From IMG/VR virus record IMGVR_UViG_3300044957_001482, positions 34,179 through 98,178 of that record: a DNA stretch of 64,000 nucleotides. The stretch is one strand, 5' to 3'. How positions within the stretch are numbered: position 1 is the first letter of the stretch; each line of letters begins with the position of its first letter. Both the position numbers and the translations under genes were made by a program. Below are positions 1,330-29,954 of the stretch, one piece after another. The notes beneath the pieces are model-generated. The model was not told the origin of the DNA and made no database searches. It saw only the letters and a program-made list of their open reading frames with translations. The stretch is from a virus (Duplodnaviria > Caudoviricetes).

Positions 1330-3126
1330 TTATCCGCCTGTCGGGATCGTCGGTGTGGACGCTGCCGGGAGTACTCCGCCCGGTGCACCTGGTGCAGCCG
1401 GCGAGCCTGGCACTTCACCGGCTCCACCTTCGATTCCGGCCAATTCTTCACCTGCAGCGATATCGCTTTCGATGCCGCCCGGTGTAATTCCGATGGTGCG
1501 CAGATCTTTCCCGGCTGCGGCTGCCAGTTCGGCCTGATCGCGTTCTTCTTGCCACAGTCGCTCGTTTTCGGAGATTTCGTCCTTGCTGAGACCCAGGAAT
1601 CGTTCTAACAGAAATCGCTTGGACAGATAAGGAAACGGGTCGAGTCTTGAAAATGCATCTATGCGTGTGATATCCAGTTCGGCCTGCCGATAACTGGCGA
1701 AATTCTGTGGCGGACAAAATGCCAGGGTAAACAGTCCCGAATCGATGTTGAATCCACGCCATTTCAAGAACATCTTGAATTCGTCGTCCAGTTTTTGTGC
1801 AATTGCTGTCTGCAGGCGTTCGCAATATTGGTTGAATCGATATTCCTGTATCAGCGCAGTGCCCACACGTCCATCGTTAAGTGCGCGGTCAGATTCGTCG
1901 GGTCCTGTGGGTAAATAGCTGCTGGGCACTCTGAGCCCGCGAGCCATTTTGTTGTTGAAGTATCTGAGGTCGTCAATTTCTCCTAGATTCTGACCGCCAG
2001 GCAAGGTTTCCACCGATGACCCGCGACCGTCTTGTCCCTGTGGGAAAAAGTAATCTTCGTTGATCGAAAGTGGATTGTAACTGGCATCCATCATGTTGGC
2101 ACCGCCGCCGGTTACCGTGGGTATGCGACGTTGATGCATTTCGTTTTTCACCCGTTCCACAAACTGCATGGCCAGGTGACTGGGCATGTTGCCCACGTCA
2201 ATCTTGAAAATCCTGCGCTCGGGTGCACGGCTTACGCGATAGATCAGTATGGCGTCTTCCAGCAGCTCTTTCTGCTTGAATACTTTGTAGATGTTTTCCA
2301 AGATCGAACGGCCAAAGGGCCAGAACACATCCAATCCCTCATTGAGACTGAGGTGCACCACGTGCTTGGCATCGATGCAGGTTTCATTCATGGCCGTCAT
2401 GAAGCGTGCATTGCCCACACCTCCGCCCACACCACCACTGGGCATGGTATAGTTGGCCGATCCCGATATGGTCCCTGTCACCGGATTGGTCATGTAGTCC
2501 GTGGTGGTCTTTTGTGCGATGGACAGACTTTGAAAATTGGGGTTGATGTCGCGAATCACATACTGCTCAGGACGTTTGCCTTCGCTTTCGTTGACAATGA
2601 TACGCATGACCTTTGATGTGTCCACCCAATACATTTCAAAGGTCTCAGGATCTCGCACAAAAACCTGGTCGCCGTACTTGATGGTATTGCGGAACAGTTT
2701 GAAGATACGTTGGTCAAACTGATTGAGCTTGGTCCATTGTTGTAGTTGTTTGCGAATGATCTGAATTTCGTGATCAGTGGGATCGTCGCGAAACCTGATT
2801 TCAAACGGCGTGTCGTTGTCTTTGTTGGTCTGTGTAGAAAACTCTGCAACAATGTCCAGACATGCATTGATCTCGGAATCCATGTCCATGTTTTCGTACT
2901 GATTGTATCGTTCGATACGATTGGGGTGACCCGAATACACTTCGGGCAATCTGGATGCATAGTTTCGAAACACAAAATCCGCAGGCATGCCCATGCTGCC
3001 ATCGTTGCGTCTGTAGTTGGGCAATCCGTATTGATTGTGTCCAGATATCGGACTTATCACACCCGATGTATCTGCGACTTTGAAATACTTACGCCATGAC
3101 TTGGATTGATTTTCTCGATTAGCCAT
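1330..3126 (-). CDS. Portal vertex protein, T4 gp20-like
   Basis: 598 aa with gp20 hallmarks: LEDAILIYRVSRAPERRIFKIDVGNMP, EDYFFP, GSSVETLPGGQNLGEIDDLRYF, LRVPSSYL. Confidence 0.95.
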   Translation of the reverse strand: MANRENQSKSWRKYFKVADTSGVISPISGHNQYGLPNYRRNDGSMGMPADFVFRNYASRLPEVYSGHPNRIERYNQYENMDMDSEINACLDIVAEFSTQTNKDNDTPFEIRFRDDPTDHEIQIIRKQLQQWTKLNQFDQRIFKLFRNTIKYGDQVFVRDPETFEMYWVDTSKVMRIIVNESEGKRPEQYVIRDINPNFQSLSIAQKTTTDYMTNPVTGTISGSANYTMPSGGVGGGVGNARFMTAMNETCIDAKHVVHLSLNEGLDVFWPFGRSILENIYKVFKQKELLEDAILIYRVSRAPERRIFKIDVGNMPSHLAMQFVERVKNEMHQRRIPTVTGGGANMMDASYNPLSINEDYFFPQGQDGRGSSVETLPGGQNLGEIDDLRYFNNKMARGLRVPSSYLPTGPDESDRALNDGRVGTALIQEYRFNQYCERLQTAIAQKLDDEFKMFLKWRGFNIDSGLFTLAFCPPQNFASYRQAELDITRIDAFSRLDPFPYLSKRFLLERFLGLSKDEISENERLWQEERDQAELAAAAGKDLRTIGITPGGIESDIAAGEELAGIEGGAGEVPGSPAAPGAPGGVLPAASTPTIPTGG

Positions 3127-3634
3127 TATCTTGCTCCATCAATTTTGCTGCTTTTTTTGCGGCAAAATATTTTTTTAATGTGTCAGAAATTTTTTTGGCT
3201 CGAAACGGATCGTAAGGTCTTCCAAGATTGGCTAGTCTGACTTTTTCTCTATGGTCTGCAGTCACAGTTCCTTTATAATTCTTTAGCTGCTCGGGGGTTC
3301 GTTTTTTTCCTTTGTTTCCTTCAGAAATCTTTCTTTTAGTTTCTTCAGAATGCTTCCAACCAACTGCGCACGCCCATTGATTGATTTTGATGTTATCTAG
3401 CAAGCCGCCATCAATTTTTCTTTTATACCTAGAAATTAACTCGCCCTCGAGTTTTTTTGCCTCATCGTTTGTTAATCCGTCCTGAACAATTACCCTGCGT
3501 TCAAGAGGAAGTAGTTGGGTTCGTGTGTGCGGTCGATGCAACCGTCTGCCAAATCCTTTTCCAATGTAGTACGGTTGACTGTCTTCATTTGCATATTGAT
3601 ATACATAGAATGTACGAGAATCGTGTTCTGCCAT
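3119..3634 (-). CDS. Free-standing GIY-YIG homing endonuclease with NUMOD3 motif (Seg-like)
   Basis: N-terminal FYVYQY...PYYIGKG...R...E...N pattern and NUMOD3-like KHSEETKRKISEGNKGKKRTPEQ. Visibly more AT-rich than its neighbours; overlaps the portal start. Confidence 0.8.
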   Translation of the reverse strand: MAEHDSRTFYVYQYANEDSQPYYIGKGFGRRLHRPHTRTQLLPLERRVIVQDGLTNDEAKKLEGELISRYKRKIDGGLLDNIKINQWACAVGWKHSEETKRKISEGNKGKKRTPEQLKNYKGTVTADHREKVRLANLGRPYDPFRAKKISDTLKKYFAAKKAAKLMEQDNG

Positions 3635-3650
3635 GGTAGTTTATTTAACC

Positions 3651-6600
3651 CTAGTTTGCTGCTGCTTGGGCCATTTTCTGGTTGGCATCAGCGGTTCTGC
3701 TTTGACTTGTTGCTATCATCTGCAGTGTTTCCAGTATACGCCGCTGTGTCCCATCGTCTTTGTTTTGCAATGAATTGACCACTTGTTGCAGGGTAGATTT
3801 GAATTCTTGTGTTACCTGTTGTATGGCTGCGGATTGATCAACATTGGATTGTTGTATGACATCCTTGATAGCAGTGCCCAGTATTTCACCTATGTCAGGG
3901 CCAAACATTTTGCTACCGGCCTGAACACCGGCAAAGTCAAAATTCATCAACATGCCCGACTTGACAATCTCTTTCCAGGTGTTAGGGTCGGTAATAGTCT
4001 GTGTGGCGGAATCGTAGGCTCCCAGCTGCCCGGCAATTTTCTTCAGGGCTTCTATGTCGGTGGTGATTGGACCCTGGTTGAACCCGGTATAGTCGTCATA
4101 CTGCCCGAGCAGTCTAGCCTGGTCGACGACCAGGCCCGGGTCGATCAAACCATTTTGCTGATTGAATCCAAATGCATTGGCAGCAACATAGTCGTCCAGG
4201 CTACGAGAGTAGCGGGAGATCAAACCATTTTGCTGATTGAATCCAAATGCATTGGCAGCAACATAGTCGTCCAGGCTACGAGAGTAGCGGGAGATCAAAC
4301 CATTTTGCTGATTGAATCCAAATGCATTTCTGTCCGCTGCAGCAGCATAGGCAGCAACATAGTCGTCCAGGCTACGAGAGTAACGGGAGATTGCTGCGAG
4401 ATCTGTGCTTATAGTACCAGTGTCATTCACATTCCGAATGAGTTTGACTTTGACGTTATCATCGGTGCCCCGACGAGTGATATTTGAATTAACCATGCTT
4501 CGGAGGTCATGCAAGGTCTTTTCCAGCTTCGGCGAAAGACTGACCGGAATAGTGTCGCCATCGGGCAGTGGAACCACTGCCTCAGGGCCGGCTTCGCCAG
4601 CAATGGCTATGCCATCGGTCACACCGCCTTTGGCCATAGCAGGTATTTCCACATGAAAGTGACCGCCGGTGGAGTGGCGACTGGGGTTGGTATATTCATC
4701 GCGAACATATGACGCACCATTGCTTTTTAGCCACTCGACGATTTTCTCTGACTGTTCCGGAGTGGGAGGTTTTTGCAAAACAAAATCCAAGGCCGCACCT
4801 TTGTTGTGTGCACTCCCTGGGACTTCTTTTTGATGGTAGTGATCGAAAAAGCCAGAAAAATACCCAAAACCTGGCACCCCTTCCTGGATGTTTTGGGCCA
4901 AATTGATCAATCGCCGATCCAGCTGAGCCCCGGCCTGTTGGACATCACCGCGCTTGACACGCAGACCGAAATTTTGGAGATCGCCCACTGTGAAGCTTTG
5001 TTTTTGCGCGGGTCCCAGTGGAGCAGCAGTGCTTTTGTTGGCGGCTGCGGCTGCCGCAGGTGCAGCACCAGGTGCTGCACCAGGTGCTGCACCTCCAAAC
5101 ATCGAAGTCGGAGCAGGTAGAATATCAGCAGGTGCCACGTAACCCCCTGGGCCAGCGCCTGGCACTCGCACACTTTGGCTAGAACTCTGCCATTGTTTAC
5201 GGAAATCGTCTTCGATCTTACGCTTCTGGTCCAGGCTCAGTTCAACATCTTTCTTGAACAGTTTGCCAATTACCCCGTAGGCCCGGGTATTGGCTTCGGC
5301 CTGTGCATCACCGACAGCACTGCGCAGACCCGATTCGTACATTTCTTGTGCTTGTTTGATACCACGCAGTTTCTGCTCTTCGTCAAAGAGGGTTTGTTCT
5401 AATTTGCGTTCATTCGCAGTCTTTCCTATGCCCAGGATCCGACCAAGCAAATTGGCCTGGCTCTTGTTACGCTCGTCTTGCAGCTGTTTTCTAAGATTAT
5501 CGACTTTGCTCCGGGCCGCTGCTTCTTGTTCGCTCTTGGGTTCTGTCTCGGTAACTCCAAACATCTCGTTGAGCTTTTTTGTGCTAATGGCCACCGCCTC
5601 GGCAAAGGCCAGCGATGCCGCAGTGGCTGCAGGAAGACCTTTGGCTGACACGAAGCGTTCTACAGCTTCGTTGGCACGGATCTGCGTGGCACGCAGTTTG
5701 GCTTGATCGGTCAACATCTTGTCGGCTTTTTGACCCTCGGCCTCGGCCGATTTCTTGCGGTCAGCCTCGATTTTTTCTAGGATCTCGACAATGTCTTTCT
5801 CGGCCAGCCCGGCCAATTTCAAATCACCGGCCAGATCGCCAAAGACCTGATTGTAAGTACCGATCATGCCCATGGTAGTGCCCAGGCTGCGTGCAGTTTG
5901 GCCGTGGGCACGTGCGATGCGTTGTGCTCCTTCGGCAGCACTTATCTGACCAGCTATGATCTGTTGTGCCACGCGCATGCTTTCACCATTCGTGCCCATC
6001 AATGACTTTTGTGCTTTTTCGGTCTGTATGTAGCCGGTCTGTATGTCAGCAAAGCCCTGAGCTGCTTCGGCATTCAGACTCTGCAGTATCAGGAATGTGT
6101 CTTCCAAGGCCTTGGCCTCTTTGAATTTCCCTTGCTGGCGCAGGCTTTCCAACTGTGCAGCAAAGCGTTCCTGGCTGCGCACCTGTTCGCGTGCTTTTTC
6201 CTGTTCTTGGCGTGACAGGCCAGTGAGTTTGGTCAGTGCATCCTGTTCTTCGAGATATCGTCGAGCCCCCTGGGCCAGGCGGTTGAGATCATCAGCACTG
6301 CGCTCAGCACTGCGCACAGTGTAGTCACCGGCCACGCGTTGCTGTTTGACATAGTTGGCCATGATCTCGGCGACGTCGGTCATGTCGTAACCTAGTCTGA
6401 AAAAATATTCTCGCGATCCTGCCAGAGCCAGGCTCATCTTGGCCAACTGTTGTCGTCCGGTGACCACGCCGCCGCCAAACAGTGTGAGTTCAGTGGCATT
6501 CCGTGTTATGACCGATATCAGGCCTTCCAGTTCACTTGATTGCGCTGACACTGCGATACCAAACCGCTTGGCATCATCAAACACTCCAGTCAGGCCGTCA

Positions 6601-7130
6601 CTGGCAGCAGCACCCGATTGGGCCAGGTCCGAATATCCTTTGTACAGTCTATCGGACTGCTCGTTGGCTGCTTTCATCAGATCCGTAAAGCCCTGGGCAG
6701 CCAAGGCCGCGCCGGCAACGCCCGCGGTCATGGCCACTGCTCCGACATTGACCTTGGCCACATTGATTCCCAATGCACTCAACACTCCGCCCAGAGGTTT
6801 CAAAGCACGTCCCAGGGGAATCAACAGTCCTAGCACTGTGATCATACCAATGATACCGGTTGCGGCTTGATCTATGGAGTCATTGAATGCAGCAGCGCCC
6901 TTGGCACCGTTATTCATGGCCGTGGCCGCGGTGAGCACTGACCCTGCGAGATCCAACAGTGCATTCACGGCTTTTGCACCGGCTATTTCCAGCTGCTTGG
7001 ATGTCTGTGTGCTGCCCACACTGAGAGCGCGTGCAGTCTGATCGGTCACATAGCCCAGTGTGCGCAGTTCTTCATTGATCTGTGCCAGCAGTCTTGCACT
7101 TTCTTCCAGCTCTTGATTTGGATCGGCCAT
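3651..7130 (-). CDS. Tail tape-measure-like protein with internal peptidase M15-type domain
   Basis: 1159 aa, long Ala/Gln-rich helical region. Carries the tape-measure motif AKGG...AGEAGPEAVVPL and a zinc-peptidase pattern SAHNKGAALDF...GGHFHVE (~4648-4814). Confidence 0.75.
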   Translation of the reverse strand: MADPNQELEESARLLAQINEELRTLGYVTDQTARALSVGSTQTSKQLEIAGAKAVNALLDLAGSVLTAATAMNNGAKGAAAFNDSIDQAATGIIGMITVLGLLIPLGRALKPLGGVLSALGINVAKVNVGAVAMTAGVAGAALAAQGFTDLMKAANEQSDRLYKGYSDLAQSGAAASDGLTGVFDDAKRFGIAVSAQSSELEGLISVITRNATELTLFGGGVVTGRQQLAKMSLALAGSREYFFRLGYDMTDVAEIMANYVKQQRVAGDYTVRSAERSADDLNRLAQGARRYLEEQDALTKLTGLSRQEQEKAREQVRSQERFAAQLESLRQQGKFKEAKALEDTFLILQSLNAEAAQGFADIQTGYIQTEKAQKSLMGTNGESMRVAQQIIAGQISAAEGAQRIARAHGQTARSLGTTMGMIGTYNQVFGDLAGDLKLAGLAEKDIVEILEKIEADRKKSAEAEGQKADKMLTDQAKLRATQIRANEAVERFVSAKGLPAATAASLAFAEAVAISTKKLNEMFGVTETEPKSEQEAAARSKVDNLRKQLQDERNKSQANLLGRILGIGKTANERKLEQTLFDEEQKLRGIKQAQEMYESGLRSAVGDAQAEANTRAYGVIGKLFKKDVELSLDQKRKIEDDFRKQWQSSSQSVRVPGAGPGGYVAPADILPAPTSMFGGAAPGAAPGAAPAAAAAANKSTAAPLGPAQKQSFTVGDLQNFGLRVKRGDVQQAGAQLDRRLINLAQNIQEGVPGFGYFSGFFDHYHQKEVPGSAHNKGAALDFVLQKPPTPEQSEKIVEWLKSNGASYVRDEYTNPSRHSTGGHFHVEIPAMAKGGVTDGIAIAGEAGPEAVVPLPDGDTIPVSLSPKLEKTLHDLRSMVNSNITRRGTDDNVKVKLIRNVNDTGTISTDLAAISRYSRSLDDYVAAYAAAADRNAFGFNQQNGLISRYSRSLDDYVAANAFGFNQQNGLISRYSRSLDDYVAANAFGFNQQNGLIDPGLVVDQARLLGQYDDYTGFNQGPITTDIEALKKIAGQLGAYDSATQTITDPNTWKEIVKSGMLMNFDFAGVQAGSKMFGPDIGEILGTAIKDVIQQSNVDQSAAIQQVTQEFKSTLQQVVNSLQNKDDGTQRRILETLQMIATSQSRTADANQKMAQAAAN
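4143..4391. repeat. Three tandem copies of a 75-bp unit within the tape-measure gene
   Basis: gatcaaaccattttgctgattg starts at 4143, 4218 and 4293. Encodes ISRYSRSLDDYVAANAFGFNQQNGL x3; the third copy has a short in-frame insertion. Confidence 0.92.
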
Positions 7131-7140
7131 AAAAACATCC

Positions 7141-7148
7141 TATAAATA
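7141..7148 (+). promoter_or_regulatory. T4-type late promoter TATAAATA (for the gp26-like gene)
   Basis: Exact T4 gp55 consensus 30 nt upstream of ATG 7178; a gp55-like sigma is encoded in the window. Confidence 0.75.
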
Positions 7149-7161
7149 AACTACTACTGCA

Positions 7162-7169
7162 TATTTATA
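7162..7169 (-). promoter_or_regulatory. T4-type late promoter TATAAATA (for the tape-measure gene)
   Basis: tatttata on the plus strand reads TATAAATA on the minus strand, ~32 nt upstream of ATG 7130. Confidence 0.75.
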
Positions 7170-7177
7170 GGTGCCCA

Positions 7178-8020
7178 ATGACCATGACTACCAACCCATT
7201 ACAACAGTTTTTCCGGCAGCCTGCGATCTATCTACGCCTGCCCAGCGGTGGCCAATTCTGGCCACCGGGCAGTGTTGACATCCCGCAGACCGGAGAACTA
7301 CCGGTGTTTCCCATGACTGCTGCCGACGAGATAACCTATCGTACGCCCGACGCACTGTTCAACGGGCAGGCTGTGGTCGACGTGGTGCAGAGCTGCATAC
7401 CCGCGATCAAAAATGCCTGGGCCATACCCAGCATCGATCTCAATCCCATCCTGGTGGCCATACGCATCGCCAGCTATGGACACGAAATGGAGATTGGAAC
7501 CACTTGTCCTGCCTGCAGCACCAATGCTGAATTTTCGCTGGACCTGAGATCAGTGCTGGATCAGATGCGAGCACCAGACTACACCACAGCTCTGCGCCAA
7601 GGAGACCTTGAAATCGCATTCCACCCCATGAGCTATCAGCAGCAGAATGCCAGCAATCTCGAACAGTTTGAAAGCCAGCAGATCATGCGTTCGGTGCCCG
7701 ACAGCGGACTGCCTGAGCGTGAAAAAGTGCAACAGATGTCAGAACTGATAAAGACCATAACACGTCTCACCATACGAGCACTCACTGCCAGCATTGCCAG
7801 CGTGCGCACTCCGCACGCCCTGGTCACTGATCCTGCACACATCCAGGAATGGCTGGAAAACTGCGACCGAGCACTGTTCACTGAGATACGCAATCATGCG
7901 ATCAAACTGCGCACTGACACCGAACTGCGGCCCATGGATCTCACTTGTCGTGACTGCGGACATCGATACGAGCAAGGACTGACTCTGGACATGGCAAGTT
8001 TTTTCGAACTCGCCTCCTGA
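7178..8020 (+). CDS. Baseplate hub assembly / tail assembly chaperone, T4 gp26-like
   Basis: 280 aa: YLRLPSGG, PMTAADEI, ILVAIRIASYG, two CxxC pairs (CPAC, CRDCGH) and a C-terminal ..FF, matching the gp26-family pattern. Confidence 0.7.
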   Translation: MTMTTNPLQQFFRQPAIYLRLPSGGQFWPPGSVDIPQTGELPVFPMTAADEITYRTPDALFNGQAVVDVVQSCIPAIKNAWAIPSIDLNPILVAIRIASYGHEMEIGTTCPACSTNAEFSLDLRSVLDQMRAPDYTTALRQGDLEIAFHPMSYQQQNASNLEQFESQQIMRSVPDSGLPEREKVQQMSELIKTITRLTIRALTASIASVRTPHALVTDPAHIQEWLENCDRALFTEIRNHAIKLRTDTELRPMDLTCRDCGHRYEQGLTLDMASFFELAS

Positions 8021-8022
8021 TC

Positions 8023-8235
8023 TTGAGCAATGACGAGATCTCTAAATATGTGGAACAACTGGATCAGGAGGCCAAAAACATACGCGCAGACAGCATGCGT
8101 CTGGCCTGGCACATGCGCGGCGGCGCTAGCTACGCACAGGTCATGATGATGAGTGCCGACGAGCGCAGGGCCATTTCTGAACTGATCAAAGAAAACATAG
8201 AAACCACGAAAAAATCTCGTTTACCCTGGTTCTGA
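8023..8235 (+). CDS. gp51-like baseplate assembly protein, probably made as a -1 frameshift fusion to the upstream gene
   Basis: 70 aa ORF with a TTG start and the motif MMMSADERRAISELIKEN. Its frame is open from the slippery heptamer T TTT TTC at 7999-8005. Confidence 0.6.
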   Translation: MSNDEISKYVEQLDQEAKNIRADSMRLAWHMRGGASYAQVMMMSADERRAISELIKENIETTKKSRLPWF

Positions 8236-8238
8236 CCC

Positions 8239-8742
8239 GTGAACATCGACACTGTCACACAACAACTCATTCAATGGCTGGAAACATTTGTCGAAAAGCC
8301 ACACCCGGCTCTGGGCGGCTGGTCGCCCTGTCCCTATGCACGGCAGGCTCGCATGACCGGTCAGATAAAAATCGTCCCGGGCACCGAGCTCGTAGACAAT
8401 GCCCGTCAGGCCGCTGCACAGGGACTATGGCAGAGAGAAGTGGTGATATATTGCTATCCCACTGATCGTTGGTCTGGCCGGGAGTTTGCCGATCAGGTCA
8501 GTCAAATAAACCAATTTTTACGACCACAGGGCATGTTTGCTCTGGATGATCACCCAGACAATGCCGAAATAGTCAATGGCATCAGTTTCAATTTTGGCGA
8601 GTGTGCGCTGATGATACTGCAACTCACTGACAAACTTGACACAGCAGCACGCGCCTTGGCAGCCAAAGGCTACTACGATGGCTGGCCCGAAGAGTATCTA
8701 GCGCAGTTGTTTCACGGACGCACGGATCCTAGGAAAATATAA
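8239..8742 (+). CDS. Hypothetical protein, DUF1415-like
   Basis: 167 aa. W..TFVE...CPYARQA and the downstream DHP motif resemble the DUF1415 CPFA/FHP pattern. Confidence 0.5.
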   Translation: MNIDTVTQQLIQWLETFVEKPHPALGGWSPCPYARQARMTGQIKIVPGTELVDNARQAAAQGLWQREVVIYCYPTDRWSGREFADQVSQINQFLRPQGMFALDDHPDNAEIVNGISFNFGECALMILQLTDKLDTAARALAAKGYYDGWPEEYLAQLFHGRTDPRKI

Positions 8743-8744
8743 TC

Positions 8745-9977
8745 ATGTACAGTGTGTATCAACCATGGGATCCGTTGAAAATCTGCGTGGTAGGACGCAG
8801 CTATCCTCCCGAGTTTTACAGTTTCATCGACAACCCTCGCTTGCGAGCACTGTTTGAAAAAATCGCAATCGAAACCGAAGAGGACTACCAAAAACTCATA
8901 GTCACATTAACCAATCTAGGAGTCAGAGTCATACGCCCAAACGTTCCCAGTGTGTGTGCAGATGATTTTGTAAGCAATTATCAACGGATCCCTGGCCCAA
9001 TCAGCATGGTGCCCAGAGACCAGATGATCATGGTCGGAGAGAAATTTTTCGTATTTCCATACGACAGGATTTCGGTCAAATCGTCAGGCAGAAATATCCC
9101 CCGCGGGAACTGGACCGAGGATCTCTATCACAGGATCAAGGGGCCCGATTGGCCACAAGCATTTACACCCTATGAAAAATTACCATTGTGGATACAGGAT
9201 GAATGTCATACGATTCTCAAAATTGATGTCTGCCCTGGGGAAGATTTTGAAAATTTCGTCAAGGTTTCCAGCGGGTATCATTGGTGGTCTCCGATTACCA
9301 GTCTGGTCCAAGCAGCCGGCAATCCTGTGATCCAAAATCAGCACCATGCCGCGCTCAATTGTATTCCTGCAAACGGCGTTACCCAGATTGGAAAAGATTT
9401 ATATTTTGGAATATCAAACAATCATGGAGAAAATACCGACATAAAAAATCTCATCGATGATTTTTTTCAGGATTATCGATGCCACTTGATAACATCCGGC
9501 GGTCATATCGATGGATGTTTCAATCCAGTGATTCCGGGTCTAATCATAAGCACACGCGATATCTCTACCTATCAATCCACGTTTCCTGGGTGGCAAGTGG
9601 TTTTTTTACCAGGGGAAAGTTATGGAAAATTACAGCCGTTCCTGGACCTCAAAAAAAAGAATCAAGGAAAATGGTGGATCAAGGGCAGTGAGTACGATCA
9701 CGAGTTGATCGATTATGTAGAAACCTGGCTAGGCGACTGGGTAGGATATGTCGAAGAAAGTGTGTTTGACGTCAACTGCCTGACCGTTGACACAAAAAAT
9801 GTCATAGTTTCTTCTTATAACAGCTCAGTGTTTGATACGTTCGATCAGCACGGAATCACTGCACACATTTGTCCGTTGAGACACAGATATTTCTGGGACG
9901 GTGGAATACACTGCGTGACCCTGGACATAGATCGCGACGGCTATCAACAGGACTGGTTCCCAGACAGATCAAGATGA
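8745..9977 (+). CDS. Amidinotransferase (glycine/inosamine-phosphate amidinotransferase family, pentein fold)
   Basis: N-terminal WDPLKICVVGR plus PRD, GHIDG and the C-terminal GGIHCVTLD with catalytic Cys. Confidence 0.85.
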   Translation: MYSVYQPWDPLKICVVGRSYPPEFYSFIDNPRLRALFEKIAIETEEDYQKLIVTLTNLGVRVIRPNVPSVCADDFVSNYQRIPGPISMVPRDQMIMVGEKFFVFPYDRISVKSSGRNIPRGNWTEDLYHRIKGPDWPQAFTPYEKLPLWIQDECHTILKIDVCPGEDFENFVKVSSGYHWWSPITSLVQAAGNPVIQNQHHAALNCIPANGVTQIGKDLYFGISNNHGENTDIKNLIDDFFQDYRCHLITSGGHIDGCFNPVIPGLIISTRDISTYQSTFPGWQVVFLPGESYGKLQPFLDLKKKNQGKWWIKGSEYDHELIDYVETWLGDWVGYVEESVFDVNCLTVDTKNVIVSSYNSSVFDTFDQHGITAHICPLRHRYFWDGGIHCVTLDIDRDGYQQDWFPDRSR

Positions 9978-10417
9978 CCTACCAATTTGCTCGCATAGAT
10001 CTCAACAAGACATCTTACCAGGCCACAGTGGACTGGCAATATATCACGGATCGCGATGACCCGACACTGACCAAATTAAATAATATCTACCGCACCTACT
10101 GTATCTACAAACGCTTTGCCTCGGTCATGCCCGTGTTTCCAAGTAGATACCGTGACTCCATGTCCGATGTCATTGGCTATTATGACCAGGGTGAATTGGT
10201 GGCCTGGAGCCTGATACGAAGATTTGACTCTCACAATGCATTGTGTGATCAATTTGCCTGGACTTATCATCGACCAGGCATGAGACTGGGAATCGAAAGC
10301 ATGAAGACCGAATGCGCCATCTATCGAGCACGAGGTTTTCACTATCTCTACCTTGAGCAAGCGCATTTGTACAAGCAAGAGATCGACGGATTTGAATTAC
10401 TAGGACCTATGACATAA
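9974..10417 (+). CDS. GNAT-fold aminoacyl-tRNA transferase-like protein (ATE C-terminal-domain-like)
   Basis: ATG at 9974 overlaps the upstream stop. YYDQGELVAWS...RLGIESMKTECAIYRARGFHYLYL...YK parallels the ATE_C pattern YxxGxLxA...LG....E.......G..YxYL....YK. Confidence 0.55.
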   Translation: MTYQFARIDLNKTSYQATVDWQYITDRDDPTLTKLNNIYRTYCIYKRFASVMPVFPSRYRDSMSDVIGYYDQGELVAWSLIRRFDSHNALCDQFAWTYHRPGMRLGIESMKTECAIYRARGFHYLYLEQAHLYKQEIDGFELLGPMT

Positions 10418-10749
10418 TGGATTTATACACTATCTGGGCCGACAAGGACGGCGACATTTCGGATGTAGAGTGGGTAGCAGGAATGAAGCAATTTTTTGAT
10501 CATCTGGTTACCGAGGGCAAGATGCAGGGCTACAGAATCACACGTTGCAAAATGGGATTTCGTAGCATCTCAGACATGCCCGAATGGATGATCATCATGG
10601 AATTCCGGGACATGGCACAGATGGATCAGGCATTCCGCCGTGTGGCTCGCAAAGAAGGCGAACTGGAGGATGCTCATAGATCGTTCAATCAGTTTGTGGC
10701 AGGCAACATACAACATGCACTGTTCCGAGACTGGCCAGATGACATCTAA
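10417..10749 (+). CDS. Small dimeric alpha/beta-barrel-like hypothetical protein
   Basis: 110 aa: YTIWAD...YRITRCKMGFRS..PEWMIIMEFRDMAQMDQAF...H...ALFRDWP. Start overlaps the upstream stop. Confidence 0.6.
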   Translation: MDLYTIWADKDGDISDVEWVAGMKQFFDHLVTEGKMQGYRITRCKMGFRSISDMPEWMIIMEFRDMAQMDQAFRRVARKEGELEDAHRSFNQFVAGNIQHALFRDWPDDI

Positions 10750-11159
10750 GATGTGCTTCGCACATCTGTTCTTCGCTTGCGCTCGAACTGTTTGTCTGTA
10801 CTAAGTATCATCCAGATTTAGTGGTCATACTTGCCCGTTGCCGGGCAAGTAATGGTCGCATCATCCGAGTTTACGCAGCCATTTTGCACGAGAAGATTTG
10901 TACTTGATGAACAGACAATTCTGTCGAGAACTGTCGGTCTAATACGTACAACGGAGGTGGTTGTGCTGTACCCCCTACTTCAGCCTTGACTCACAACGGA
11001 ACGTGTGTGACCCTGTGCAAACAAAGTCGACCACGCCAAGGTTGTGTCTTTTTCACAGAGCCTTGATCATTTCAGCCTTAGTTAGCTGTTGCCTTTGACA
11101 CCCAAGATCCGCCGGTAAACTAATACAAGCTCAATGGGGACCAGTCCTGTTCACTGGTC
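10749..11159 (-). ncRNA. Candidate large structured non-coding RNA (family not recognised)
   Basis: A ~410-nt gap with no ORF in the track, between convergent genes, in an otherwise gap-free genome. At least six stems; G-U pairs and a GCAA tetraloop favour the minus strand (details in findings). Confidence 0.6.
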
Positions 11160-12186
11160 ACAGAGTCTTTGAAAGTTGCCTTACGAAAGTGTGATATGTG
11201 TTTGGTTCTAACAGTTGATGTAATTGTTGTGTGTTGGTAAATTTTTTGAGGCCATACGATCTAAGATTGAGATTATGATGATATAGTAAATGATGTTGAA
11301 TAGCTGCTTCACGCATAAGGTCGAGGTCAAATCGGTCAAGCGCAAGATTCTGTCCGTTGAGTATGGCCTGTATGATGCGGTCAAATGCCCAGACAAATCG
11401 CATACGGTCATAGTGAATCCTGGACCAAACTCGATAGAGGCTCAACCAGGACGACCATCTATCTTCGACCAACTCAACACCAACATGCTTCAAAAGATCG
11501 GGCATTGCTTGATCTAGACAGAACCAATTTTCTGTGGCTTCTAGACCATAGTAATTACAATGATCGAATCGCTCGTCGCTGAATCCTGGCTGTGCAGGGG
11601 GCATGTTGAGAGCCAGGAATTCTCGCAGATCCCAGATTTGATCGAGTCCTTGTGATTTCCATATCGCATAATCCCGGCCAAAGAAAAATTCAATGAAATC
11701 GTGATTTTGTTGGTCCGCGGTCTGGTTGACAGCCGAAGCATCTTGCCATTTTTTTCTCAGTTTCCGAGGTTCCCATTTTGTATGGTACCGATGATACTGG
11801 CTGGACAACCGCACACGTATCATGTAGTCGCTGTGTGTACATGCTAGATCCACGGTTTTTTGATCTAGCACAGGGTCAAATGGCCATTTATTGTCCGAGT
11901 CGATGTCAATTTGACCACGTTCAAAATTGTGAAGATACACTATCTGTGTGGTTGATTGGGACAATGGCCGTAGCGTGTCAACACACTGTTGAAGTTCGTT
12001 GAGGCTGGTAGCATGATTCACAGCAAACTGGTGAGCATTTCGCTCAGTCAATGGGTTGTCTCCGACTTCACAGGTGCTGTTGGATTTTACATGGTAGTGA
12101 TGATCCTGGCCAGACAGCCTCAGGATGCTCCAGGCCAAAAAGGTGCCTCCGACTGCAGGATCTGTGATTAGAGAAATCAACGGCAT
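11158..12186 (-). CDS. Hypothetical protein with sulfotransferase/P-loop-like N-terminus
   Basis: 342 aa. ISLITDPAVGGTFLAWSI resembles a beta-strand plus GxT PAPS-binding loop. Confidence 0.45.
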   Translation of the reverse strand: MPLISLITDPAVGGTFLAWSILRLSGQDHHYHVKSNSTCEVGDNPLTERNAHQFAVNHATSLNELQQCVDTLRPLSQSTTQIVYLHNFERGQIDIDSDNKWPFDPVLDQKTVDLACTHSDYMIRVRLSSQYHRYHTKWEPRKLRKKWQDASAVNQTADQQNHDFIEFFFGRDYAIWKSQGLDQIWDLREFLALNMPPAQPGFSDERFDHCNYYGLEATENWFCLDQAMPDLLKHVGVELVEDRWSSWLSLYRVWSRIHYDRMRFVWAFDRIIQAILNGQNLALDRFDLDLMREAAIQHHLLYHHNLNLRSYGLKKFTNTQQLHQLLEPNTYHTFVRQLSKTL

Positions 12187-12692
12187 AAATCACGCACGGT
12201 ATTGGCATTGAGTTCCCAGAACAGCTCATGGTCCATGATGATCCACTGGCCACGAAGCCCGGCGGCATAATTGAAATGTCTGGTATAGATCAATGAAGTC
12301 TGATTGGGCTGCAACTGAACAGCCACATACGTGCCTTTGCGATTGAACTTCATAAAAATAATGTTGAAATCGCCGAGATCAGACACAGCCATGCATTGAT
12401 CGATCCAGTCGTCCAAAATTTTGACCGATCCTGAAAAAAGCTGATGAAAAGGAAAGTTCTGGTAATTTTTGCATTCTGCGTTGAGCCTGGAAAACGATTC
12501 GCCGGGTATGATGTCGCCCTTGAATGTGCGTATCTGTCCTTCGTGCAACAACTGTTTGCGATGGGTGTTTTTTCCACCTATGTACGCGCCCGACCCCGGC
12601 GCTCGCATGAATCGCTCACCGTAGAGTTCGGTGAGAAAATCCGCGATGTAACGCTCAAAGGAGTTGCCTTTGGTTTTGCTGGGACTGGGCAT
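12177..12692 (-). CDS. Holliday junction resolvase (Hjc-type PD-(D/E)xK nuclease)
   Basis: SKTKGNSFER...PGSGA...GDII...AECKNY motif set. Confidence 0.8.
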   Translation of the reverse strand: MPSPSKTKGNSFERYIADFLTELYGERFMRAPGSGAYIGGKNTHRKQLLHEGQIRTFKGDIIPGESFSRLNAECKNYQNFPFHQLFSGSVKILDDWIDQCMAVSDLGDFNIIFMKFNRKGTYVAVQLQPNQTSLIYTRHFNYAAGLRGQWIIMDHELFWELNANTVRDLCR

Positions 12693-12696
12693 GGTG

Positions 12697-13275
12697 TTAT
12701 TGTTTATGATCTAGATTGACCCAGGCAGTAATTTCCTCTATACAGGTGTTACTTTGCATGGCAAGACACAGCGTTATCATGTCAATGATATCAGTTAGAG
12801 AATGGCCAAGGTCTGTGGGTTCTGCGAGTGCCCGACTCGTTGGCTTCGCCAATTGATCGACATTGAGCAACGTTGTCCTGAATCTCACATGGTTTTGCTT
12901 AAAGGCTCTGCTCCATTGATGACTGTGATATCGCAAAACTGCTTTGTTGGCAGCATAGAGATCATGGTCCAACACAGGCGGAATTTCCGAGACACTGGCC
13001 ACTCCACCTATATTAATAATGTAGCCGGATTTATCACACTGCTTCCAGGTTGTAGCAAGTTGGTTGAGTAATTTGGTTTGGCAAAAATCACCGTTGATTT
13101 CGCCATATACCCCATCATATGCATTGTTTATAAAAATATCATGGTCAAGACTTGCCTGTACTAGATCATTGATATTATTTCGTAGATCGTGCCCGGTACT
13201 GCGGCTAACACTGCTTCCCTTAAAATGTTGACAAATGGCCAGGCCCAGGCCTTGATTTCCGCCGGTTATCAACAT
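12697..13275 (-). CDS. Short-chain dehydrogenase/reductase (SDR)
   Basis: ITGGNQGLG (TGxxxGxG), FINNA, IINIG and catalytic YAANK (YxxxK). Confidence 0.8.
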   Translation of the reverse strand: MLITGGNQGLGLAICQHFKGSSVSRSTGHDLRNNINDLVQASLDHDIFINNAYDGVYGEINGDFCQTKLLNQLATTWKQCDKSGYIINIGGVASVSEIPPVLDHDLYAANKAVLRYHSHQWSRAFKQNHVRFRTTLLNVDQLAKPTSRALAEPTDLGHSLTDIIDMITLCLAMQSNTCIEEITAWVNLDHKQ

Positions 13276-15128: not shown

Positions 15129-16646
15129 TTATACTTGATATCCCATTGCAGATGCAATTTCTCGATGAGTATCGGCAAACGTTTCATGTCTTCGTTGGTC
15201 AAGCATTGACATGTATTCCACGAATTCCTGACCGTTGCTACCGGCACTGGCTGATATTCTTTTTGCCAAATTTGAAAGTTCTTTGATATTGTGATTTTTA
15301 TACTTGGAAACCACCAATTCCTTTGCTAAATCGGTCATGTAATCGACACAAAGATATGTTGGCTGGTCTAGATAGTTAAGAGTGATATTTAGATCTTGTT
15401 CGCTGGCCCAAAAAAACAATGACTCGAGATACAAAACATTCTGTATGTTAACTGTTGGCATTATGTAAATGCGTAGTTGGCTGTCGGCCCAACTTTTTAA
15501 CTTGTTGATATTGTCTTGTATTTCTTTCCAAGATCCGCCACGTTGCAATTCAAATCTTTGGTTGGTGTCATCGATGCTGACAGCTATGTCTACCGATTGA
15601 AATTTTTTTAACAATGGCATGAATTTTTCTGGATAAACAGAACCATTGGTATTGATGTGTAGACGTATGTGATCACTGTCTCCGGACTGGATAGCCAGTT
15701 CTAAAAACAAATATATGTTTTTGAGCAACAACGGCTCGCCACCGTAAAAATCGATATTGATAAGGTTGGGCAACAGATTGATCAGTTGTTCGAGAAAATC
15801 TTTGTTGTGGTCAAACCATCTGCCCTGGTACAGTAAAGACAAAATTTCAGTTTTATCATCGTGTGCGGAGTATCTCAACTTTTCAACAGCGATACTCGAG
15901 CTGGAGGCCGGGGAACATATCCTGCATTTGAAATTGCAAATATTACCGGCCTTGATGTCAATGGATTGCAGCGTTGGATTGTCAATGAGCTCACTCAACA
16001 AATGTTGTCGATACAGACTCAAATGATTTTGTCGATTGCTGGTCAGCCCATTTTTTTCAAGATTCCAGCAATGACTGCATCCAACCGGCTGCTTGCCGTC
16101 AGACAATTCTCGACGCAGAGCGGTAAGGCTGGTGCCGTGAAATATATTTTGCATGGTATCCGTGGATACCGAACCAATTTTGCCTTGATAAACACAACAC
16201 GGTGCATAATGTCCGGTATTGCTAACAGCCAGGTGCATCCAGGGCATGGGGCAAAGGGTCTGTTCGTTGATCAAAAAATTGTCAGGCAATATTTTACCGG
16301 AATCTATGTCGTGAATTTCACAAACAATGGGCGACGAATCTGCATCACCGTATACTCGGTGGCTGAGATCAAACAGATGCTGAGTTGGCTCGCCGCAAAA
16401 AATCAATATAAAAAAATTGCTGATATCTACAAGTTTGGCTGCCCGTTGTATATGATCGGCCAATTGCTGGCTTGGCGCATGTTGACAATAAAAAACAATA
16501 CGTTCATTGTGTTGATACTCAAATCGATGCAGGCTTGTTAATTTTCTATAGATAGACCCGGTGGACTGATTGATTGTAGACAGATCGATCGACTCGATGA
16601 CCAAATATCTCGTTCCGATGTAATCCGATACTCCTCTATTCATCAT
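15129..16646 (-). CDS. Radical SAM protein with N-terminal SPASM/twitch-like Cys cluster
   Basis: CNFKCRIC (CX3CX2C), GGEP, and auxiliary CPMPW...PCC...CSHC. AT-rich gene sitting between gp47 and gp46. Confidence 0.9.
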   Translation of the reverse strand: MMNRGVSDYIGTRYLVIESIDLSTINQSTGSIYRKLTSLHRFEYQHNERIVFYCQHAPSQQLADHIQRAAKLVDISNFFILIFCGEPTQHLFDLSHRVYGDADSSPIVCEIHDIDSGKILPDNFLINEQTLCPMPWMHLAVSNTGHYAPCCVYQGKIGSVSTDTMQNIFHGTSLTALRRELSDGKQPVGCSHCWNLEKNGLTSNRQNHLSLYRQHLLSELIDNPTLQSIDIKAGNICNFKCRICSPASSSSIAVEKLRYSAHDDKTEILSLLYQGRWFDHNKDFLEQLINLLPNLINIDFYGGEPLLLKNIYLFLELAIQSGDSDHIRLHINTNGSVYPEKFMPLLKKFQSVDIAVSIDDTNQRFELQRGGSWKEIQDNINKLKSWADSQLRIYIMPTVNIQNVLYLESLFFWASEQDLNITLNYLDQPTYLCVDYMTDLAKELVVSKYKNHNIKELSNLAKRISASAGSNGQEFVEYMSMLDQRRHETFADTHREIASAMGYQV

Positions 16647-29200: not shown

Positions 29201-29954
29201 GCCGGGCCAAGTGTTTTATGCATACGACGAACAAACTTTCTACCAACTATCACGCACTGTGACTGGGGTTCTGACGATCGACCCGGTTAGTGGTTGGATC
29301 GCCCGCACAGGACGCCAGGCTCTGTACTATCAATATCGGCACAATTCTCCGCTGACCAATCGCATCGATCCGGGTACCACCAATATCATTGATCTTTACG
29401 TGGTCACACTGAGTTACTACACTGCCTATCAGAACTGGCTCAAAGACACCACCGAGACCATACCCGAACCTCTGCCGCCCACGATCAATGATCTCAATGT
29501 CGAGTATCAACATCTCAACGATTTCAAAATGATTTCTGACAACTTGGTGTTGAATTCAGTGTCATTCAAGCCGCTGTTTGGCGCCAAAGCTTCTCCAGAA
29601 TTACGAGCCACAATCAAAGTCATACGAGCACAGAATTCCACAGCCAGCGTCAGCGAAATCAAGAGTTCGGTCCTGGCTGAAATGAACAACTATTTCAGCA
29701 TTGACAAATGGGACTTTGGATCTACCTTTTACTTCAGCGAACTGGCAGGGGTCCTGCATCGGCAATTGGGTACCATTATCAGTTCTGTGATCCTGGTACC
29801 CCTGGATCCACAAAAATCATTTGGGGATCTCTACGAAATACGCAGTCAACCCAATGAAATTTTTGCCAATGGTGCCACTATCGATAACATCGATGTGATC
29901 GAGGCATTGACTAGTAGTAATCTTCGAACCCGACCCGGCAGCGGAGTGATTTAA
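26265..29954 (+). CDS. Baseplate wedge subunit, T4 gp6-like
   Basis: DFETLR...ENYLDTAERRDSVVRLA, FGDGVF..IP, IKQRAPARYYAQNRMVNGEDY. Confidence 0.88.
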   Translation: MAQTTRQTAIFGVEDWKQIYQTYREADFQSYDFETLRKSFIDYLRLYYPETFNDYIESSEFIALLDVIAFMGQAMAFRADLNARENYLDTAERRDSVVRLANLVSYTAKRNTAASGYLKVFNVVTTENVVDYNGVNLSNVTVNWTDPTNPDWQEQFTAIINAAMVSGQRVGRPGNRQTILGVRTDEYAINLVPGFLPVVTYSATVDGINMPFEAVTATSQGEPYVYEPPPRPGTPFNVLFRNDQLGFSSADTGYFFLFKQGTLQNQDFNLAERISNRTVNVNIEGVNNQDRWLFQLDNVGTVTREWVYVDNIYAAAGEPGLRPVYSTTSRANDQITLVFGDGVFAEIPVGTFRAYVRASNGLQYIINPEEMQNVVIPISYISRSGNLETITFTCGITRPISNAQTRERIDSIKQRAPARYYAQNRMVNGEDYNLFPFTAFNSIIKSKALNRASIGTSRYLDLVDNTGKYSSTNTFGSDGGMWQENPLPTILFSWTNRNEIVDIITNQVQPQLGEAITKQFYYANFPRKLVNTVEFVCTSTSSTTNAISTSSQEFFQYVSELLGQQIKFADTIGGLIAGLPYYVRTVDTTNLRFTVSATVGGPSVALTTATQGAMTARAELITFNTTWNQSTTFTNETTGYFKNNSGSPVSVGADSSQVLKYIVPRALILFRAPAGYYFDRNNRLRLGEPTRADERVTLWASPLRVDGDGSNGGIGNFSNETGPVVLNNFVPTGAIVDTVIPQFIADLPRSVENQAREQIELFRNFGLGYDNSGSLTGTPSTWYLINQQSLDIDAPFAITPGISGRNTNTGQDASWMVQFVVENQNYAITFRGLAYYFGSVLQTRFFFYEGQQVYDSRTGTIIRDFVNVLAVNTRPDSTDPLPGDIPVTIIGQPVQSDGFVDDFQVLIGFRDSDNDGVPDDPDFFNEIVSPAVNPNQKLVFFEQTVDFDNLQRYLLVQPGRVTSDYPTRDAIELAKFAWSPGQVFYAYDEQTFYQLSRTVTGVLTIDPVSGWIARTGRQALYYQYRHNSPLTNRIDPGTTNIIDLYVVTLSYYTAYQNWLKDTTETIPEPLPPTINDLNVEYQHLNDFKMISDNLVLNSVSFKPLFGAKASPELRATIKVIRAQNSTASVSEIKSSVLAEMNNYFSIDKWDFGSTFYFSELAGVLHRQLGTIISSVILVPLDPQKSFGDLYEIRSQPNEIFANGATIDNIDVIEALTSSNLRTRPGSGVI

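Follow-up and report, generated by a model that had tools for sequence, protein, structure and literature searches.

The closest worked example of the enzyme set described here is the argolaphos cluster of Streptomyces, in which, according to PMC12866846, AglA is a YqcI/YcgG-family heme enzyme whose iron is bound by Cys44 and which acts as a guanidine N-hydroxylase. Its substrate in that text is the conjugate aminomethylphosphonate-arginine (AMPn-Arg), not free arginine, and AMPn-Arg was prepared with arginyl-tRNA synthetase (ArgRS), tRNA and AglC (PMC12866846). The argolaphos cluster table in PMC8976061 lists a 342-amino-acid (aa) PF13480 GNAT and an ATP-grasp ligase. Among phages, use of charged tRNA outside the ribosome has been demonstrated only recently, for Mom of phage Mu (2026), a late-expressed GNAT that, according to PMC13219725, takes glycine from Gly-tRNA and places it on adenine N6 in double-stranded DNA; Mom is reported to work as one enzyme alone, and a helix-turn-helix (HTH)-like insertion of ~35 aa (about residues 175-209) is essential for its activity. 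Here, we describe an operon of accessory enzymes in uncultured T4-like myoviruses from lake water, located at positions 8239-10749 (+ strand) of a 64,000-nucleotide (nt) stretch of DNA, hereafter the window, which is the 3'-terminal part of a virus record (IMG/VR record IMGVR_UViG_3300044957_001482) consisting of one 98-kb contig and rated 28% complete. Its core consists of a putative Cys-dependent enzyme with an AglA-like predicted fold, a minimal GNAT of the ATE_C lineage and a DUF6614 protein, and part of the clade adds an amidinotransferase relative. It would represent known chemistry in a new setting, an abundant clade of uncultured phages.

The first-pass annotation of this DNA had placed four tightly coupled genes at the locus, and their coordinates proved exact. 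We call the cassette proteins p167, p410, p147 and p110, use hub280 and p70 for the upstream context, and give related loci L numbers:

7178-8020, + strand: hub280, a baseplate-hub-like gene (Pfam T4_baseplate, E 1.8e-15; PHROG 150 'baseplate hub', E 2.6e-16)
8023-8235, + strand: p70, a 70-aa gene that follows the hub gene in every one of the 62 hub-anchored loci
8239-8742, + strand: p167, with a GTG start 3 nt past the p70 stop
8745-9977, + strand: p410, after a 2-nt gap from p167
9974-10417, + strand: p147, with an ATGA overlap with p410
10417-10749, + strand: p110, with a TAATG overlap with p147

The hub gene is the first of the co-oriented string and belongs to the context, outside the enzyme cassette; hub280, p70 and p167 are spaced by 2-3 nt, gaps or overlaps within the cassette measure 1-4 nt, and the genes after p110 lie on the opposite strand. 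No family match was found for p70 in Pfam or PHROGs. Judging by the numbers of homologous 90%-identity clusters (285 of 360 candidates for p167, 2588 among 2592 for p147, and 892 for p110), the cassette open reading frames (ORFs) are real genes, not chance ORFs. The T4-like assignment is borne out by genes in the window for a portal, gp5- and gp6-like baseplate proteins, SbcC/SbcD-like nucleases and a late sigma factor (PHROG 'sigma factor for late transcription', E 6.5e-75), and near-identical DNA occurs in ten lake-water metagenome DNA runs, with no RNA run among them. A blastn search of window positions 8000-11000 against phages gave no match, and aragorn found no tRNA gene in the 98-kb contig.

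The assignment of p147 is carried by its family. Homologues are of nearly constant size (all 144-148 aa among 120 matches listed), and an exhaustive phmmer search with p147 recovered 111 representatives, including 225-260-aa proteins that match p147 in their middle. Pfam ATE_C is matched by nine of ten distant 183-260-aa relatives scanned, eight of them at or above the 25-bit cut-off, and ATE_C (PF04377) is also matched at E ≤ 1 by 15 of 30 short-form members (best E 7.3e-8); PF13480 was matched by 2/30 at E 0.046. An hhalign comparison joins the short forms to the long, two-domain ATE-like forms with a probability of 99.9% (E 5e-38). When a joint profile of both was run against 177,635 PDB sequences, ATE1 alone was returned (5/5 matches, E 1.4e-7 to 8.9e-6), the match spanning the β4-α3-β5 core with the signature F.WD......SLG...E......YxYLGY...YK, and a profile of short forms only placed the same five ATE1 sequences first (E 0.03-0.06). 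Acetyl-CoA GNATs carry motif A, Q/RxxGxG/A, in the β4-α3 loop. In p147 this motif is absent in any register of the loop, YHRPGMRLGIES, which instead reads YHRPGMRLG (family consensus YxxPxLRLGxxS) and follows ATE1 (..SLG..). Alignment places the start of p147 where the ~55-aa N-terminal segment of the long forms ends. Pfam ATE_N had no match in any of 10 long relatives, which match ATE_C only, and the two-domain phage relatives (225-260 aa) lack the metal-motif cysteines of ATE1 and Bpt. Searches with p147 alone were uninformative: nothing in PHROGs or NCBIfam, one irrelevant match (E 0.063) in a single-sequence phmmer search of the PDB, and no tblastn match to phages.

The AF2 model of p147 (pLDDT 95.2) is a plain GNAT domain with only core GNAT elements in its 147 residues. 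It matched 215 chains at Z ≥ 8, GNATs throughout the matches listed, and overlays human ATE1 at Z 11.1 (144 aligned) as well as the C-terminal catalytic GNAT of the tandem-GNAT enzymes L-PGS (Z 14.4), FemX (14.1), MprF (13.8) and Sbb17 (12.5). The FemX/MprF/Sbb17-type overlays (Z 12.5-14.4) cover 139-142 residues; these enzymes have two tandem GNAT-like domains against one in p147, whose sequence signature resembles that of ATE rather than Fem proteins. With ATE1 and Bpt (Pfam ATE_N plus ATE_C), p147 shares the GNAT core, the β4-α3-β5 signature and an aminoacyl-tRNA as the expected donor; it differs in starting after the ATE_N region, in lacking the CxxC...CC metal motif and the substrate-binding domain, and in its setting, a phage operon with tailoring enzymes. 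Mom (PMC13219725) resembles the proposed p147 in being a phage single-GNAT enzyme that uses charged tRNA late in infection; p147, however, has no HTH-like insertion in its AF2 model, and its profile did not match Mom. Judged by its sequence relatives, p147 appears to belong to the ATE_C (arginyl/leucyl-tRNA-protein transferase) lineage, as a minimal form with a single GNAT domain, and to be a putative aminoacyl-tRNA transferase, in agreement with the initial description of a ~147-aa single GNAT resembling the ATE C-terminal domain, an identification now reached by profile searches, hhalign and Pfam matches in relatives.

For p167, the informative evidence is structural. Its AF2 model (pLDDT 91.9) was compared with 48,161 chains in VIA-align, and AglA (9ub3) was the sole chain at Z ≥ 5 (Z 7.7, root-mean-square deviation (rmsd) 3.7, 148 aligned), the next reaching 4.5; across five AglA entries, Z was 7.7-8.1 and rmsd 3.7-3.8, with 147-151 of the 167 residues aligned. 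Foldseek likewise ranks AglA first (probability 0.98 but E 1e-2). By comparison of the AF2 model with AglA, the fold is a YqcI/YcgG-type sandwich with a four-stranded sheet flanked by helices. Within the motif PCPYAR, immediately ahead of a helix, Cys31 is conserved in all 25 sequences compared, as are C-terminal arginines; it is the putative counterpart of the AglA heme ligand Cys44. On this basis, we lean towards p167 being a heme-thiolate guanidine oxygenase of AglA type. It had earlier been suggested that p167 might supply the missing substrate-binding half of the transferase; an AglA-like fold with an invariant cysteine looks instead like an enzyme in its own right.

The label DUF1415-like, also given to p167 initially, holds only weakly and for a short stretch. 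An hhalign comparison with five bacterial DUF1415 proteins gave a probability of 35% over 36 N-terminal columns (a helix plus the CP[FY]A motif), and ESM Atlas neighbours of p167 include clusters labelled DUF1415/DUF6875 (scores 0.92-0.93). Pfam DUF6875 is weakly matched by 24 of 25 family members (best E 3.3e-4), but on p167 itself reaches only 19.5 bits, below the 24.5 cut-off, at residues 8-46 only. The common ground with DUF1415/DUF6875 thus appears to be the N-terminal Cys motif only. Otherwise, p167 matches PHROG 10325 (E 2.7e-14), NCBIfam has no family for p167 or p110, and the p167 profile found nothing meaningful among PDB sequences (best E 0.58). A bacterial YqcI/YcgG protein was tried as a bridge between p167 and AglA and set aside: it aligned to AglA only at E 0.6, outside the Cys region. 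Bacterial DUF1415 loci were present in 6 of 151 genomes. In a Bacteroidota metagenome-assembled genome (MAG; L167), a genuine DUF1415 gene (220.9 bits) lies directly 3' of an ORF of 169 aa resembling a RimJ/RimL-type GNAT (genes 866-1375 and 1453-2025, + strand).

Characterised amidinotransferases use arginine as the amidino donor, and HsvA amidinates polyamines. A phmmer search of PDB sequences with p410 gave eight matches at E ≤ 10, seven of them amidinotransferases: HsvA (6.3e-11), StrB1 (1.6e-9), four AGAT entries (1.2e-8 to 6.6e-7) and SxtG (9.1e-5). The motifs named in the first-pass annotation were all located, PRD at residues 90-92, GHIDG at 253-257 and GGIHC at 386-390, and PRD aligns with PRD of HsvA and StrB1. 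In the HMMER alignment, His254 (GGHIDG) and Cys390 (GGIHC) stand opposite StrB1 residues 227 and 332, its catalytic His and Cys. Across 18 p410-family members from related loci, D92, H254, D256 and C390 hardly vary; identity within the family is ~34-67%. Similarity to HsvA, StrB1, AGAT and SxtG extends over N-terminal, middle and C-terminal segments, with PRD, GHxD and GG(I/F)HC in common; p410 differs in having no Pfam match and in being embedded between AglA-like and ATE-like genes. On these alignments, p410 can be regarded as a true amidinotransferase relative. Amidinotransferases of other phages (S-SCSM2R, marine virus AG-345-D19) occur in other contexts, without the trio of p167, ATE-like and p110 genes, and one amidinotransferase of another phage was detected in a virion proteome, according to PMC12801897.

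The fourth protein, p110, belongs to Pfam DUF6614 (PF20319; residues 1-109, E 3.5e-24, 85.5 bits with a 25-bit cut-off), as do all 30 of its ESM Atlas neighbours. It is highly conserved (65-87% identity), with C44, H87 and H100 invariant; its profile found nothing meaningful among PDB sequences (best E 0.89), and prediction of a complex of p147 with p110 gave no verdict (score 0.00 in both runs). In open-access and bioRxiv full text, the only literature naming DUF6614 concerns a 44-aa phage protein annotated with it and reported as an anti-Druantia factor (bioRxiv 10.1101/2024.04.14.589459). This protein, Druad1, was judged too weak a lead to the function of p110.

Gene order across related phages defines the unit. 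We used 80 IMG/VR loci anchored on p147 and 80 anchored on the hub gene, 62 of the latter with at least 1.8 kb downstream, and a set of 65 non-redundant loci from which loci with identical p167 DNA had been removed and in which at least 2.6 kb downstream was required; many loci come from related samples, and the counts are not independent events. Among the 80 p147-anchored loci, p167 is present in 79 (the sole exception, L004, is cut by the contig end), p70 in 72, p110 in 70, the hub gene in 69 and p410 in 26. Among the 62 hub-anchored loci, p167, p147 and p110 each occur in the same 29 and p410 in 2, and the cassette is absent from the other 33. In the 65 non-redundant loci, the ATE-like gene lies beside p167 in 65, with p110 in 60 and an amidinotransferase in 16, in the following arrangements:

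p167, ATE-like, p110: 46 of 65 loci
p167, amidinotransferase, ATE-like, p110 (the arrangement in the window): 8 of 65 loci
p167, amidinotransferase, ATE-like: 4 of 65 loci
p167, ATE-like, amidinotransferase, p110: 2 of 65 loci
p167, amidinotransferase, ATE-like, amidinotransferase, p110: 2 of 65 loci
p167, long ATE-like (reversed), p110: 2 of 65 loci
p167, ATE-like: 1 of 65 loci

In all 16 loci bearing it, the amidinotransferase lies inside the unit, before and/or after the ATE-like gene, with two copies in 2. The core is therefore a three-gene accessory unit of p167, the ATE-like gene and p110, and p410 is optional but always within it; co-occurrence, predicted for all four genes, held for this trio and not for the amidinotransferase. 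L018 retains a remnant amidinotransferase N-terminus 5' of p110, and a ~100-nt gap between p147 and p110 is common to L016-L018. In L099, L117-119 and L161, a two-domain ATE-like gene (233-248 aa) takes the p147 slot; it runs on the opposite strand but is still flanked by p167 (or p410) and p110, so that p147 has been replaced by a paralogue with the neighbourhood kept. MAG contigs scanned with p110 yielded five loci, none of which added a bacterial context: the complete hub-p70-p167-p147-p110 arrangement occurs in L159 and L160, parts of it lie on two short contigs (L161 and L162), and L163 is a 22-residue match only.

We give an even chance to the reading that the cassette moves an aminoacyl group (probably arginyl) off tRNA onto an amine acceptor and then tailors the guanidino group, as AglC and AglA do for argolaphos, where a tRNA-dependent aminoacyl transferase is likewise paired with an AglA-fold Cys protein (PMC12866846). 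p147 would move an aminoacyl group from a charged tRNA, most likely Arg-tRNA(Arg), to the acceptor amine; p167, as an AglA-like Cys-ligated (heme-thiolate) enzyme, would then oxygenate a guanidino nitrogen of the attached arginine; and, where p410 is present, an amidino group would be moved to or from the same arginine-derived moiety. The near-obligate p110 may act as partner, carrier or further tailoring enzyme. We favor arginine because three arginine-linked enzyme types meet in one operon (ATE1 with Arg-tRNA, amidinotransferases, and AglA-type enzymes with guanidines), and we would place transfer before tailoring because AglA needs an arginyl conjugate and refuses free arginine. As for the acceptor, a protein amine (p110 itself included) and a small-molecule amine are both possible, each falling short of an even chance, while a DNA base is doubtful, and so is any other acceptor. 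The original proposal of combined aminoacylation and guanidinylation keeps its two enzyme calls, ATE-like and amidinotransferase; guanidinylation becomes an optional add-on because the amidinotransferase occurs in a minority of loci (26/80, 2/62 and 16/65). The view that such a pathway is undescribed in phages also stands, as neither an ATE-like transferase of a phage nor this cassette turned up in open-access and bioRxiv full text, where the Mom paper was the sole pertinent one on tRNA-dependent hypermodification.

Several observations weigh against this proposal. The p147 of the window itself has no Pfam match at E ≤ 1, and two parts that accompany the GNAT domain of ATE1, an N-terminal Zn-finger segment and a substrate-binding domain, are missing from it (PMC10115844). 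The p167-AglA Z of ~8 counts as 'middling' on the scale of the tool, and Cys31 is a putative equivalent of Cys44. p167 is also ~75 residues shorter than AglA, with no detectable PF08892 (YqcI/YcgG) sequence similarity: 0 of 25 family members match PF08892 at E ≤ 1, and hhalign of p167 with two bacterial YqcI/YcgG proteins gave a probability of 0.9%, a non-significant alignment that pairs Cys31 with their conserved Cys and was the only one offered. Bacterial ATE_C enzymes (Bpt) use Leu-tRNA, so membership of the ATE_C family does not imply arginine. In p410, the residue facing StrB1 Asp179, the third residue of the amidinotransferase triad, would be Pro208, by extension from an HMMER alignment that begins one residue later, and Asn or Ser in relatives. 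As to the comparison with argolaphos, its genes form a Streptomyces phosphonate cluster, not a phage locus, and there are no phosphonate genes here. Finally, p147 and p110 are conserved (73-87%) far above p167 (~45%) and the hub protein (~37-60%), a pattern that a simple small-molecule pathway leaves unexplained and that hints at macromolecular partners.

Some of these points would suit a rather unlikely alternative, in which p147 is a phage N-terminal protein transferase of Bpt/ATE type that places Leu or Arg on N-terminal Asp or Glu of proteins from host or phage for N-degron proteolysis, with p167 or p110 as the missing substrate-binding half and the amidinotransferase as a passenger. To our knowledge, all characterised ATE_C enzymes act on protein N-termini. 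ATE1 and arginyltransferases are the only sequence-level relatives of p147 with known function, a partner would make sense for a protein without a substrate-binding domain, and p110 is conserved as strongly as p147; PMC10115844 is in keeping with action at N-termini. However, the amidinotransferase always lies within the unit, in three arrangements, which argues against a passenger, and p167 finds its only clear fold match in an enzyme whose Cys is conserved rather than in a binding module. Moreover, one- and two-domain ATE forms swap in the same slot, which indicates that p167 and p110 do not replace the extra domain.

Less probable still, p147 might be an ordinary GNAT that uses acyl-CoA (such as an N-acyltransferase of polyamines or amino sugars), and the product an acylated or guanidinylated small molecule made without tRNA. 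Acetyl-CoA enzymes match the p147 model as well as any, with VipF at the top (Z 14.7), MshD at 12.7, and VipF and WecD heading the Foldseek list (WecD E 5.9e-6), so that structure alone cannot tell p147 from acetyl-CoA GNATs; HsvA, which amidinates polyamines, is also the closest solved relative of p410 by E-value. Nevertheless, profile searches put ATE1 alone forward, ATE_C is matched by 15 of 30 short-form members and Acetyltransf_1 weakly by one (E 0.044), and the loop lacks motif A; it is the sequence signature, not the fold, that we take to settle the donor type. Similarly improbable is an island for counter-defence or host takeover in which each member acts on its own, the GNAT on aminoacyl-tRNA as substrate in the manner of TacT/AtaT toxins, or an arginine-consuming enzyme starving a host system, with p110 as a small inhibitor. 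The unit does sit in a variable region between hub genes and SbcCD-like genes, with many hub-anchored relatives (33/62) lacking it, and the anti-Druantia protein (bioRxiv 10.1101/2024.04.14.589459) carries a DUF6614 annotation; yet that annotation is weak and the protein has 44 aa, and the three core genes are gained and lost together with overlapping stop and start codons, which points to one function. No TacT-like chain was among the 50 structural matches of p147 listed, an absence that is no evidence. Transfer from tRNA followed by guanidino tailoring thus stays our preferred account.

The flanks of the operon bear on its timing:

7141-7148, + strand: TATAAATA, a T4-late-promoter-like motif 30 nt 5' of the hub gene ATG
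7162-7169, - strand: second TATAAATA copy, facing the divergent 1159-aa gene
10750-10766, + strand: 7-bp hairpin directly 3' of the p110 stop, followed by TGTTCTTCG
10829-10850: second, longer hairpin (ViennaRNA)

The motif, which we take to be the T4 late-promoter consensus, lies on both strands of the 47-nt divergent region 5' of the hub gene and occurs four times in the window against 0.87 expected (0 of 100 shuffles reached four), the remaining two copies preceding a baseplate-wedge gene and another + strand gene. Against late expression, just one of the 59 unique related loci has the exact + strand TATAAATA 5' of its hub gene, so that the late-promoter argument is weakened to a variant motif: ATAAGTA lies ≤ 80 nt 5' of the hub gene in 41/59, at the same place in the loci displayed, and TAAATATA on the - strand of the divergent region in 52/59. 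The divergent intergenic region (7130-7178, and the same place in L001-L084) forms a conserved near-palindrome, CCTATAAGTA...TATATTTATAGG, and resembles a back-to-back pair of late-type promoters. In the 59 loci, the stretch from the hub start to the p110 end contains no motif of late-promoter type. The two hairpin stretches folded at -13.9 and -22.9 kcal/mol in ViennaRNA and likely mark the end of the transcription unit; a consensus terminator scan listed neither. We infer, with moderate strength, that the cassette is read through from the baseplate-hub promoter late in infection.

Other genes of the window lie around the cassette or in the variable island downstream:

3119-3634, - strand: 171-aa ORF between the portal and 1159-aa genes, matching homing-endonuclease PHROG 314 (E 1.3e-12)
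3651-7130, - strand: 1159-aa ORF divergent from the hub gene, with three tandem ~24-aa units (GLISRYSRSLDDYVAANAFGFNQQN) and an Ala/Pro-rich stretch; it may be a tail-length or hub protein
11158-12186, - strand: 342-aa protein p342, with relatives in 21/80 loci, often on the same strand right after p110, and no family match in Pfam, PHROGs, NCBIfam or PDB sequences
12177-12692, - strand: phage PDDEXK nuclease (E 1.1e-23), adjoining the SDR-like gene in the variable island
12697-13275, - strand: 192-aa SDR-like protein, truncated-looking (adh_short at residues 1-18 only, E 9.5e-5)
15129-16646, - strand: radical SAM protein with a twitch domain (505 aa; NCBIfam N_Twi_rSAM, E 4.7e-91), its gene lying between those for the SbcC-like and SbcD-like proteins
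29954-44689, + strand: single 4911-aa ORF 3' of the gp6-like baseplate wedge gene

The cassette had been thought possibly to feed this downstream island, but the link is loose, as the island varies between phages: relatives of p342 occur in 21, of the radical SAM protein in 15 and of the SDR-like protein in 3 of the 80 p147-anchored loci. A 142-aa ORF (MxWLYENxxxExLPEDCVGFVYLITN...RKYIGKK), by eye resembling a GIY-YIG homing endonuclease, is kept beside the SbcC-like gene with or without the cassette, with copies in the variable island of four related loci:

L117, 4471-4899, - strand
L099, 8077-8505, - strand
L090, 7604-8032, - strand
L116, 7385-7813, - strand

In L099, two ORFs after the cassette (6602-7141 and 7083-7682, + strand) resemble, by eye, a phosphoribosyltransferase (VIIDDLLATGGT) and a nucleosidase.

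Here, our results place an abundant minimal ATE-type family in synteny with an AglA-like Cys protein and DUF6614, often with amidinotransferases. If the proposed transfer and tailoring are right, p147 would be the smallest known ATE-type aminoacyl-tRNA transferase, DUF6614 and the DUF1415/DUF6875-like Cys-motif proteins would gain their first functional contexts, and environmental phages would be a source of a new arginine-derived modification or metabolite. A bolder extension, which we consider unlikely, is a second, multi-enzyme case of tRNA-dependent macromolecule hypermodification, in which p147 would arginylate DNA bases, or a virion or carrier protein such as p110, late in infection, and p167 and p410 would convert the arginine to an N-hydroxyguanidino or trans-amidinated group that shields the genome or virion from host defences. 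That would make an abundant group of lake phages the bearers of a previously unseen modification derived from arginine.

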